64,000 bases of DNA from Bacteroidales bacterium (GTDB lineage: Bacteria; Bacteroidota; Bacteroidia; Bacteroidales; CAIWKO01), in NCBI GenBank assembly GCA_035389045.1, contig DAOORA010000010.1, positions 1 through 64,000 on the forward strand. Reading direction: 5' to 3'. Shown piece after piece: positions 30,001 through 33,000 of the stretch. A program made the position numbers. The first letter of the stretch is position 1, and every line of letters starts with the position of its first letter.

Positions 30001-33000
30001 GAGGCAGGCTGCTGGCAGCTGCGCACTTTATTGTGCATTGATTGCATTTATCCATATCGTATTTTTTGATTCTAAAAGTAAGAAATAAAAATGACAAAAT
30101 GTGATTTAAATCACATTATTTGTTGCAATACCTCACATGAAGTTTTGTTCAATGTATGTATAACATGTTTAATTTTGCCGTAAATAATAAAAAAACAAAA
30201 CTATGAGCAATGAACTAGAAAATCAGATTCTTGAGTTGCAGAAAAAGATCGGCAAAATAGAAAAAGGAACAAAGGATCAGCTTTCGATGGTTGTATTTTC
30301 AGGTGACCTGGATAAGATTCTGGCAGCCATGATTATCTCTACAGGTGCGGCTGCATATGATATGAAAGTGAAACTCTTTTTTACGTTCTGGGCCACTGCT
30401 GCATTGCGAGACCCCAAAAAATCAGTTTCCGGCAAAAACTTTATGGCTAAAATGTTTGGCATGATGCTGCCCAAAGGTATGAACAAAATAAAATTATCAA
30501 AAATGCACATGATGGGTATGGGAACAAGCATGATAAAAGGACTGATGAAAAAGAAAAAAGTGGCCTCCCTGCCTGAGATGTTTAAAACCGCGGGCGATCT
30601 GGGTGTGGAAATAAACATTTGCGAGATGTCCATGGATCTGATGGGATTTAAACGCGAGGAAATGATCGATTATCCCCACATGAATGTCTGTGGTGTGGCT
30701 ACATTTTTGGCGGATGCACAGGAAAGTAAAGTTCAGTTATTTATTTAAACAGGCATTTTTTTTAACCGCAAAGGACGCTAAGATTTACCGCAAAGGACGC
30801 GAAGGAAGAAATGACAGAGAACGAGCTATCAAATAAAGTTATTGGGCTTGCAATTGATGTTCATAATGCATTGGGCCCGGGTCTTCTTGAAAGCGCTTAT
30901 AAAGAATGTTTATTTTATTCAATTAAACAAAATGGATTATTTGTCATAAAAGAAAAGGCGATGCCTTTGGTATTTAATGAGGTGAAACTTGATTGTGGTT
31001 ACAGAATAGATCTGCTTGTTGAAAATAAATTAGTTATCGAAATCAAAAGTGTTGAAGCTATAAATGATATTCATTTGGCTCAAACCTTGACTTATCTGAA
31101 ACTTGGCGATTTTAAGCTCGGTCTGCTAATTAATTTTAATGTACTAAAACTAAAAGATGGTATCAAAAGGGTGGTAAATAATTTGTAAATTCTTTGCGCT
31201 CTTTGCGTAAAATCTTTGCGAAGCGCAAAGCGCCTTTGCGGTTAAAAGGAAATAATTATAAACCAATAAAAAATAAAAATCATGACAACAGAAGAATTAA
31301 AAAACATTACAGCAAATCAGGTTGTGGACGCACGCGGAACTGCATGCCCGGGCCCATTATTGGCAGCAAAAAAAGCAATCGGCGAGATTGAATCAGGAGA
31401 AATTATGGAGATTTTATCTTCAGACGAAGGTACCAAACACGACATTCCCAGATGGTGCGAAAAAATGGAACATGAATTTCTGGGAATACTTGAAGAAGAC
31501 AGCTATTCAAGATTGTTCTTGAAAAAGGCATAACAGTTCGCCATCGCTAACAGCCTAACAACCTAACAACCTAACAGTCTAACAGTCTAATAGCCTAATA
31601 CCCTAATAGCCTAATAGCCTATTATTTCCTATCAGTAGTTTACTTCATTATTAAGGTGCCGGCGGTGTTCTTGTATTAATTTATCATATATATTATTAGT
31701 ATGTCAAACGAAACTTACAAACCGAAAATCCTGGTGTTCTCAACGGATAAAATCTCTGACCCGGGCATCGACCAGGCGGGCCTGCGCAAAATACATTATT
31801 CCCCTTCGGTGTATGTGATCAGTATGCCTTGTTCTTCGGGTATCAAGCCAAAATGGATCATGCATGCCCTGGAAAAAGGTTTTGATGGCGTATTTATCGC
31901 TGCCGACGGGCACGAATGTTCTTACAGCCCTAAATGTGCCGAGCATACCAATAGGATCATCACCGAAGCCCAGGAAATGATGAAAACCAAAAACATCAGT
32001 CCCAAGCGTATCCGTATGGCCGCTATCTGTTCGGTATGTGCTGAGCCATTCTCGAACCACATGGACACGTTTAGTCGAATTTTGGCCGAACTGGGAGATA
32101 TCAACTCTGAAATTAACAAAGCTCAATAATTGAATTAAACATTGATTTCGATTCATATGTCAGAAAAAAATAAAAAATTTGACACACTGGTAATAGGCGG
32201 AGGTATCGCGGGGCAAGAGGCAGCGTTGAGTCTTGCCGATATGAACCACCAGGTGCTGCTGGTAGAAAAAGGCCTTTCTATCGGTGGTAAGATGATACAG
32301 CTTAGCAAGGTGTTTCCAACACTTGATTGTGCTGCCTGCATCACCACCCCAAAAATGTCGGAAACGGCCCGCCATCCGAATATTACGCTGATGCTCAACA
32401 GCGAAATTGAGGGCATCACCAAATCGGGAAACGATTTTCTGGTTGATATTGTAAAAAATCCCCGTTATGTCATTCCCGAAGCCTGCACCGGCTGCCAGGA
32501 ATGTGAGGTGGTATGTCCCGAAATCCGTAATGATGAATATAATTGCAATCTTGCCGGACGCAAAGTGGCTTATATCCCTTTCAGCCTTGCAAATCCCCGG
32601 ATCGCCACCATCGAACGCAAGGACACTTCTGCACCCTGTATCAACGAATGTCCGGGCGGTGTAAAACCGTACGGGTACATCACACTGGCAAGAAACGGGC
32701 AGTACGAAGAAGCCATGAAACTGCACCTCGAAGATATTCCTATCCCGGGCAGTCTCGGGAGGGCTTGCTACTCGCCTTGTCAGAATGCCTGTACGCGCTC
32801 AGGCCTCGACCAATCTGTGGATATAAGAAAAATAAAAAGATTTTTTACTGATTATTACTACGAAAAATTTCCCGAGGCTCCGGTTCAGAATATTGAAATA
32901 AAAAGCGGGAAAAAAATTGCGGTTATTGGCTCCGGCCCGGCAGGACTGACAGCCGCTTATCATCTCGCATTGAAAGGCCATACGGTCAAGATATTTGAAT

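Follow-up and report, generated by a model that had tools for sequence, protein, structure and literature searches.

What is a short gene from a family without an assigned function doing inside a conserved operon, enclosed by two sets of repeats that mirror each other, and how did it come to be there? The question is raised twice in the window, by which we mean the whole stretch of 64,000 nucleotides analysed here. It lies on contig C10 of a Bacteroidales genome that we call G000; C numbers denote contigs of this genome, other G numbers relatives, and L numbers individual loci. At the head of an hdr-like operon, the first cassette separates dsrE2 from tusA. The upstream host gene encodes a DsrE2-family sulfur carrier (30203..30748, plus strand; PF13686, E = 1e-46). 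It is followed by a left arm (30757..30806, plus strand) consisting of a T-run and then four CGCDAAG heptamers directed into the gene, at 30767, 30776, 30789, and 30798. The GxxExxY gene itself (copy 1; 30811..31188, plus strand) encodes 125 amino acids, and the right arm on the minus strand (31190..31248) carries four inverted CGCAAAG units at 31192, 31201, 31214, and 31234, after which tusA begins (31282..31533, plus strand; PF01206). The dsrE2-tusA junction is kept in 19 genomes of the family, and the 5' leader of tusA is A-rich in cassette carriers and reads AGGAG in most empty alleles. A 4-bp mini-hairpin (31223-31233) is inserted within the right arm, with paired changes in G014, G016, and G002. 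Tiny palindromes (a GC-rich 16-mer and those of the CCGATAGCTATCGG and CCTGCCTGCCGG types) are recurrently inserted within arms at many loci, for example L012, L034, and L071.

The second cassette is found between two HdrA-like genes. Its gene (copy 2; 35004..35381, plus strand) is 52% identical to copy 1 and is preceded by a left arm with three CGCAAAG units (34960..34986, plus strand) and followed by a right arm with three inverted CGC units (35386..35411, minus strand). Next to it lies a further right arm, an orphan whose units belong to a different class, CACGAAG (35421..35447, minus strand). Because the same junction holds an unrelated paralog with CACGAAG arms in G014 and arms alone in G009, this orphan is probably the remnant of an earlier occupant of the site. 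Three more gene-free arm clusters, all of CAC classes, are present in the window (18014-18120, 23680-23715, and 53418-53460), and a search of Rfam gave no match within 22000-56000. In total, G000 contains five intact GxxExxY copies (two on C10 and one each on C83, C22, and C97) and one decayed copy on C59; the other copies are 32 to 55% identical to the two in the window. All five are co-oriented with both neighbours, as the first-pass annotation had reported, and its description of a duplicated arm plus gene fragment upstream of one copy was borne out for the copy on C22. Near the C83 copy are what we take, from their motifs, to be a REP-transposase-like fragment and an ORF6N-like gene (C83:16324-16761 and C83:12981-13589).

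Copy 1 scores far above the cut-offs of both family profiles (TIGR04256, 140 versus 35 bits; PF13366, 135 versus 22 bits), and its AlphaFold model (pLDDT 95.6) shows a PD-(D/E)XK fold. The protein contains E27, D67, E77, and K79, which are invariant among 47 aligned members, and ends in the tail VVNNL. We regard it as a predicted PD-(D/E)XK nuclease. Its nearest structure matches are Cas4, lambda exonuclease, and restriction enzymes, with a best Z of 8.2 and none standing out, so that no function can be transferred from PD-(D/E)XK relatives. It shares the fold and the D...ExK core with Cas4, lambda exonuclease, RecB-type, and Uma2-like nucleases but is without Fe-S cysteines. A sequence search of the PDB gave no match, a search of the ESM Atlas returned family members only, and neither an HUH tyrosine transposase nor any other known transposase class was found in the gene by HMM, alignment, or structure matches. 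The family is large (19,673 clusters at 50% identity, E < 1e-10), and the gene occurs in 86 of the 151 genomes analysed from the phylum. It was found in 8 of 72,556 plasmid records and 0 of 50,697 phage records, which reveals no vehicle; IMG/VR yielded five loci by profile, with arms at one of the five, and one weak match by single protein. Some natural GxxExxY proteins have two domains, and in five of the six examined (P0001-P0004 and P0007) the second has lost the catalytic D/ExK residues. Such degenerate second domains hint at a dimer.

A gene of this kind might simply be a useful accessory nuclease, acting in stress, defence, or as a toxin and gained and lost by ordinary allele exchange, with arms that are merely autoregulatory. 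Strong purifying selection (dN/dS of 0.02 to 0.12) would fit such a role, as would transcription of the gene with its operon, seen in RNA contigs, and the position of some copies beside genes that look like restriction-modification genes in translation. We nevertheless consider this reading very improbable: pseudogenes and scars are frequent, up to 13 matches occur in one genome and lie at housekeeping junctions, PADLOC returned weak matches only (best E = 0.006, to Cas4b), and no partner gene accompanies the nuclease.

The arms are a general feature of the family. Their unit is the heptamer C(A/G)CDDA(G/T), which occurs in two to four copies per arm, mostly 8 to 10 nt apart and pointing towards the gene. 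We examined 149 loci, of which 143 had an intact gene and 137 full flanks, leaving 124 after dereplication at 85%. Both arms, defined as at least two sense units upstream and at least two antisense units downstream, were present at 78 of the 124 loci compared with 4 of 3236 control ORFs of G000, and 113 loci had an arm at some position. In a held-out set, both arms were detected at just 22 of 56 loci, and many genes of divergent subfamilies are armless by the heptamer motif. The flanks of L098 (G080:C7) carry a longer, CACGAAAG-like variant of the unit that the heptamer pattern misses, and arms at loci scored as "armless" may thus be undercounted. The left arm starts a median of 14 nt past the upstream stop codon (n = 76). 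Co-orientation of the gene with both neighbours is common, not universal: it was seen at 84 of the 117 loci that could be scored and at 36 of 52 in the held-out set, compared with 1492 of 2786 controls. The left and right arms of a locus agree in class, as judged at unit position 2, in all 69 loci of the first set and all 25 of the held-out set.

The spelling of the heptamer covaries with both ends of the protein. Rules were derived on the first set and then fixed for the held-out test, for which 75 loci were fetched; 70 were intact, and 56 were new and non-redundant, most of them belonging to the same phyla as a Nostoc, a Syntrophobacteraceae, and a Chloroflexia genome. Proteins with the tail xx[NDH]xL had CGC arms at 31 of 31 loci (held-out, 5 of 5), and those with other tails had CAC arms at 63 of 72 (held-out, 23 of 34; P = 0.008 for the tail rule), the misses of the long-tail rule being 9 CGC loci in the first set and 11 in the held-out set. 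The commonest short tail went with CAC without exception (40 of 40; held-out, 10 of 10). At the N terminus, Thr7 was associated with G at unit position 5 (28 of 30; held-out, 15 of 16, P = 0.005) and Ser, Ala, or Phe at residue 7 with A (46 of 60). Unit position 2 is thus informed by the C-terminal tail and position 5 by residues 7 and 8. This holds for either arm, a pattern not expected from simple linkage. When the tree was built from the protein core alone, 5.8 of 7 independent pairs changed in the same direction and none in the opposite one (P ~ 0.03). Direct recognition is the simplest reading of this covariation, and we infer that the GxxExxY protein probably reads the heptamers of its own arms.

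The first-pass annotation had described the arms differently, as hairpin ends whose own duplex beats every cross pair, each copy having its own arm sequence; the heptamer unit, its covariation with the protein ends, and the gene-free arrays had escaped it. We repeated the duplex calculation with 120-nt flanks and 600 control ORFs. With DNA energies, the own pair was indeed best for all five copies but lay beyond the 1% tail for only four of them (C83 was at 1.5%); with RNA energies (-43 to -66 kcal/mol), it was best in row and column for three of five and within 1% for two. The idea of an individual arm for each copy held in part: in 33 of 90 cases (about 6 expected), an arm's own partner outranked all others of its class, but the arms form a few spelling classes. 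Both window copies belong to a single class, and among same-class partners their own ranked only 7/15 and 5/15. The excess of own pairing resides in spacers and outer flanks, and at the degenerate unit positions own pairs matched hardly better than cross pairs did. Arm mismatches comprised 251 of the G·U type and 286 of the A·C type at 67 simple loci, and on these counts we rejected a selected RNA stem. RNA contigs from three studies that span dsrE2, the gene, and both arms contained no joint skipping the cassette, and the three RNA runs yielded neither an excised nor a joined form; such contigs omit rare forms, and their depths cannot rank expression. The first bin upstream of the operon was uncovered in all three RNA studies. 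A joint at 34986-35387 in a DNA run has just 21 letters on one side and was set aside.

Since there is no G·U excess, the excess pairing falls in spacers and flanks, and RNA contigs lack a skipping joint, the arms look like inverted binding-site arrays that are alike at the DNA level rather than a selected RNA stem, and hairpin ends as a working principle find no support in this analysis. An element whose paired arms, as single-stranded DNA or as RNA in the manner of rRNA intervening sequences, serve as the substrate for excision is in our view barely plausible. It could draw on a locus-specific symmetry that goes beyond class (the outer 8 nt match at 4.65 versus 3.08 of 8 positions, and the first spacing is equal in 60% versus 20%), on the closed-stem fold of the window cassette (z = -2.96), and on tandem duplications and back-to-back junctions. 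It fares poorly with the roughly 1,580 mismatches that stand against 4,219 matches across arm pairs and with a tree of 66 family copies that shows no near-identical copies at different sites of one genome, identical copies being found solely in tandem.

Relatives show the orthologous sites as full, broken, reduced to arms, or empty. Among 20 genomes, 19 were informative at dsrE2-tusA: 3 have the gene, 5 have arms only, 1 has another repeat type, and 10 are empty. At the hdr junction, 13 of the 20 genomes are empty and 2 have arms only; 3 carry genes of one lineage, 1 has a pseudogene, and in 1 the gene is an unrelated paralog with different arms. G014 carries a gene at both window sites beside empty sister alleles; at dsrE2-tusA, its allele is sister to an empty one with support of 100/99, and a conversion-tract scan there was saturated. 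The first-pass annotation had named further sites at which relatives carry the gene and G000 has none, and we found the gene in relatives at opt-pepT, at iorA-iorB, upstream of a PNP/deoD-like junction, and after lysS (neighbour names taken from flanking translations and earlier labels, not from HMMs). The gene is absent from G000 at these sites, but some are scars rather than naive sites: iorA-iorB retains a decayed pair of arms, and lysS has a lone left arm. No target-site duplication was visible when filled and empty junctions, whose alleles have diverged, were compared.

The clearest case of exchange is the hdr cassette of G008, which is 92 to 94% identical to those of G000 and G016, whereas its flanks are 68 to 69% identical to theirs and 82 to 86% identical to those of its empty sisters. 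The last ~11 codons of the gene upstream are of the donor type. The synonymous difference between G008 and G000 is 0.17 in the cassette, 0.45 to 0.51 in four other genes, and 0.28 in mvhD. These alignments show at least one clear case in which the cassette entered the orthologous junction of a relative together with a short stretch of co-converted flank. A similar pattern was found at opt-pepT, where G001 and G013 differ by 0.03 in the cassette, 0.04 in the first 30 codons of pepT, and 0.32 and 0.22 in the far flanks. Of 37 same-site pairs, 33 showed less divergence in the cassette than in its flanks, but the pairs are non-independent and mostly weak, and the count is inflated because the low GC3 of the cassette (0.22 to 0.26 versus 0.45 to 0.47) lowers its saturation level. 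In RNA run X4, 30 letters of a loose end agree with the downstream arm of the G008 type; the two alleles can thus share a community. In G008, G010, G013, and G001 (L072-L075), dsrE2 is 94 to 96% identical to that of G000, hdrA is just 68 to 69% identical, and the upstream hdr gene is much shorter, and for these reasons the comparison suggests that the hdr block of these genomes was replaced horizontally.

In the 66-copy family tree, 10 of 12 shared sites each hold a single lineage and the other two hold a second, unrelated one, and a few close relatives are found at different sites in different genomes. The description of a mobile cassette inserted in operons thus gains support from the site states, the G008 transfer, the co-converted flanks, and the opt-pepT divergence. 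These comparisons make it very probable that the unit is exchanged horizontally at fixed sites. It appears to move mostly from relative to relative, faithful to its site, rather than to transpose within a genome.

Homing elements pass through a general cycle of gain, decay, loss, and regain, and by analogy the GxxExxY site histories are those expected of such elements. The unit sits between conserved genes at junctions that are filled in some relatives and empty in others, and apparent co-conversion of flanks at the cognate site is clear for G008 and for G001/G013. The simplest form of homing would be the classical intronless one, in which cleavage of the empty allele falls within or close to a conserved flanking gene and the arms are operators through which the nuclease represses or protects its own locus. 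PMC2988022 describes free-standing endonucleases of T4 that match in site-faithful lineages, co-conversion tracts, and cycles of gain, decay, loss, and regain, and this reading would also account for entry into armless alleles. It would, however, require two specificities of one 125-residue domain and closely related proteins that serve dozens of unrelated target junctions. The covarying residues track the arm, not the empty site, and a promoter and terminator scan of the arms gave results at chance level, with no evident promoter. For these reasons we consider classical homing unlikely. The same source shows in what the T4-like seg and mob genes resemble the cassette, namely, a lone nuclease gene between conserved genes, patchy distribution, and flank co-conversion. 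They differ in being phage-borne and of the GIY-YIG or HNH type, whereas GxxExxY genes are chromosomal, belong to the PD-(D/E)XK group, and carry inverted arrays of a heptamer whose spelling covaries with the protein.

Arms also occur without genes. A three-unit pattern gave 78 hits in G000 (1 in shuffled sequence), 65 of them intergenic, and the genome contains 81 arms in 46 clusters. In 150 other genomes of the phylum, at least 10 hits were found in 54 of 85 with the gene and 4 of 65 without it, although kin are non-independent, and some genomes have hundreds of motif hits. As in REP-like families, the repeats are extragenic and tied to the presence of the gene. Elhai et al. reportedly described small dispersed repeats in Nostoc in 2008. 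Many gene-free arrays occupy sites that hold the gene in relatives, and on this comparison we read them as scars. Six near-identical gene-free doublets looked like candidates for arm transposition, but they were discarded as evidence for it because all lie inside a MITE. This MITE, of ~330 bp with 12-bp terminal inverted repeats, is found at C42:18570-18900 and on C4, C22, C34, C37, C76, C80, C2, C9, and C108; some copies contain the arm doublet, and others lack it.

The dispersed arrays invite comparison with REP/RAYT systems. A mostly stationary, domesticated enzyme could copy the arms in trans, and the arms could serve the host, for instance in mRNA stability. Gene and repeat abundance correlate (rho = 0.72, kin being non-independent), back-to-back doublets and tandem arrays of arms exist, and RNA contig depth falls just past the right arm in two of three runs, a weak signal. 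In 15 genomes picked because arms were numerous and genes few, the top arm class was that of a resident gene's arms in 10 (6.4 expected; P = 0.027), but it matched the class predicted from the protein in 9, which is not significant (P = 0.12). The commonest gene-free class in G000, CACnAAG (23 of 46 clusters), is without an intact cognate gene, and this, together with the six copies inside the MITE, counts against action in trans. The gene has no HUH motif, many gene-free arrays are apparent scars, and GxxExxY genes move and change sites, whereas 10.1101/2021.07.10.451892 describes RAYTs as non-jumping and vertically inherited. We hold this explanation to be quite unlikely. REP/REPIN-RAYT systems (REPtrons) and TIRtrons, as covered in PMC3116915 and PMC3733652, likewise join an enzyme gene to inverted repeats of its own flavour from an intergenic family. 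Their enzyme is an HUH tyrosine transposase with a stationary, vertically inherited gene, and their repeat is a short palindrome with a GTAG/CGTC tag; the GxxExxY unit is a tandem, non-palindromic heptamer without a tag, and its gene is exchanged between species. Insertion sequences and MITEs with terminal inverted repeats also have inverted ends around one enzyme gene and gene-free derivatives. The GxxExxY cassette differs from insertion sequences in having no DDE, HUH, or serine transposase, no near-identical copies at multiple sites, site fidelity, and flank co-conversion.

We prefer to read the unit as a selfish chromosomal cassette that spreads in a homing-like way: its nuclease would recognise its own arms, make the cassette recombinogenic, and seed a dispersed repeat family. 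On this proposal our judgement is evenly divided. The cassette would consist of a left arm, the gene for a small PD-(D/E)XK nuclease, and a right arm, would sit right after a stop codon within an operon, and would borrow the host promoter. The protein would bind the heptamers on double-stranded DNA and nick or cut at the arms or just outside them. Cutting would render the unit recombinogenic. Homologous recombination in the conserved genes on either side would then copy it into the corresponding junction of a related species, as in intronless homing, with short co-conversion; occasionally it would land at a new junction. After decay of the gene, the arms would persist as scars, from which slippage, tandem duplication, and hitch-hiking might build up a family of dispersed, REP-like repeats. 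Whether nuclease activity drives the exchange could go either way. Two points run counter to an arm-reading nuclease and are left unexplained by it, namely, how the donor is spared and how the enzyme acts on armless alleles such as those of the G008 sisters. More tentatively, and with some doubt on our part, the data may be read as a two-part code, the C-terminal tail reading heptamer position 2 and the N-terminal helix position 5, that defines a distinct, cross-phylum class of mobile elements, in which a 125-residue nuclease acts on its own arms, thereby driving site-faithful exchange between species, and is the source of dispersed repeats, with genes for a four-helix-bundle protein as a parallel.

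Judged from sequence, the cassette would work like intronless homing combined with a REP-like repeat family and belongs to neither by the features examined, which suggests an undescribed selfish genetic element. The literature searched mentions GxxExxY, PDDEXK_3, PF13366, or TIGR04256 only in passing. PMC3424549 gives the function as "Unknown" and refers to "multiple transfers," and 10.1101/2021.01.26.428298 places one GxxExxY gene beside an RT. Within the open literature searched, a scope that excludes subscription papers and supplements, there was no description of flanking arms or repeats, and the arm feature is apparently real, general, and undescribed. A huge family to which the literature searched assigns no function thereby gains a candidate substrate, the cognate heptamer array, as well as candidate catalytic residues and specificity-swap predictions, which make its function directly testable. 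If the proposed mechanism is true, it would extend homing-like selfish spread to ordinary operon junctions of the chromosome, account for a common intergenic repeat that goes unannotated, and make available a very small sequence-reading nuclease.

A second kind of array in G000 accompanies the TIGR02436 genes for the 23S rRNA intervening-sequence protein, a four-helix bundle with a non-nuclease fold. These genes (L327-L335; C26:8954, C24:33120, C45:10498, C32:22171, C20:6315, and C49:31248) lie in operons and are bracketed by their own tandem arrays of 7- to 8-mers, inverted in several cases; CRCDDAK arrays were found at none of the nine loci. Just downstream of tusA, the window contains an 8-mer array, CTAACAGC x9.4 (31547..31621, plus strand), whose unit also flanks the TIGR02436 gene on C49. 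It is a probable leftover arm of a cassette of the four-helix-bundle type, and arrays of this type are gene-free at tusA-mvhD in several relatives. The TIGR02436 genes and their arrays apparently form a parallel cassette system. Finally, two tandem arrays with a unit of 122 to 125 bp, found nowhere else in the genome, lie at 19294-19664 (~3 copies) and 20686-20927 (~2 copies) in the window, where they flank an apparent broken small operon.
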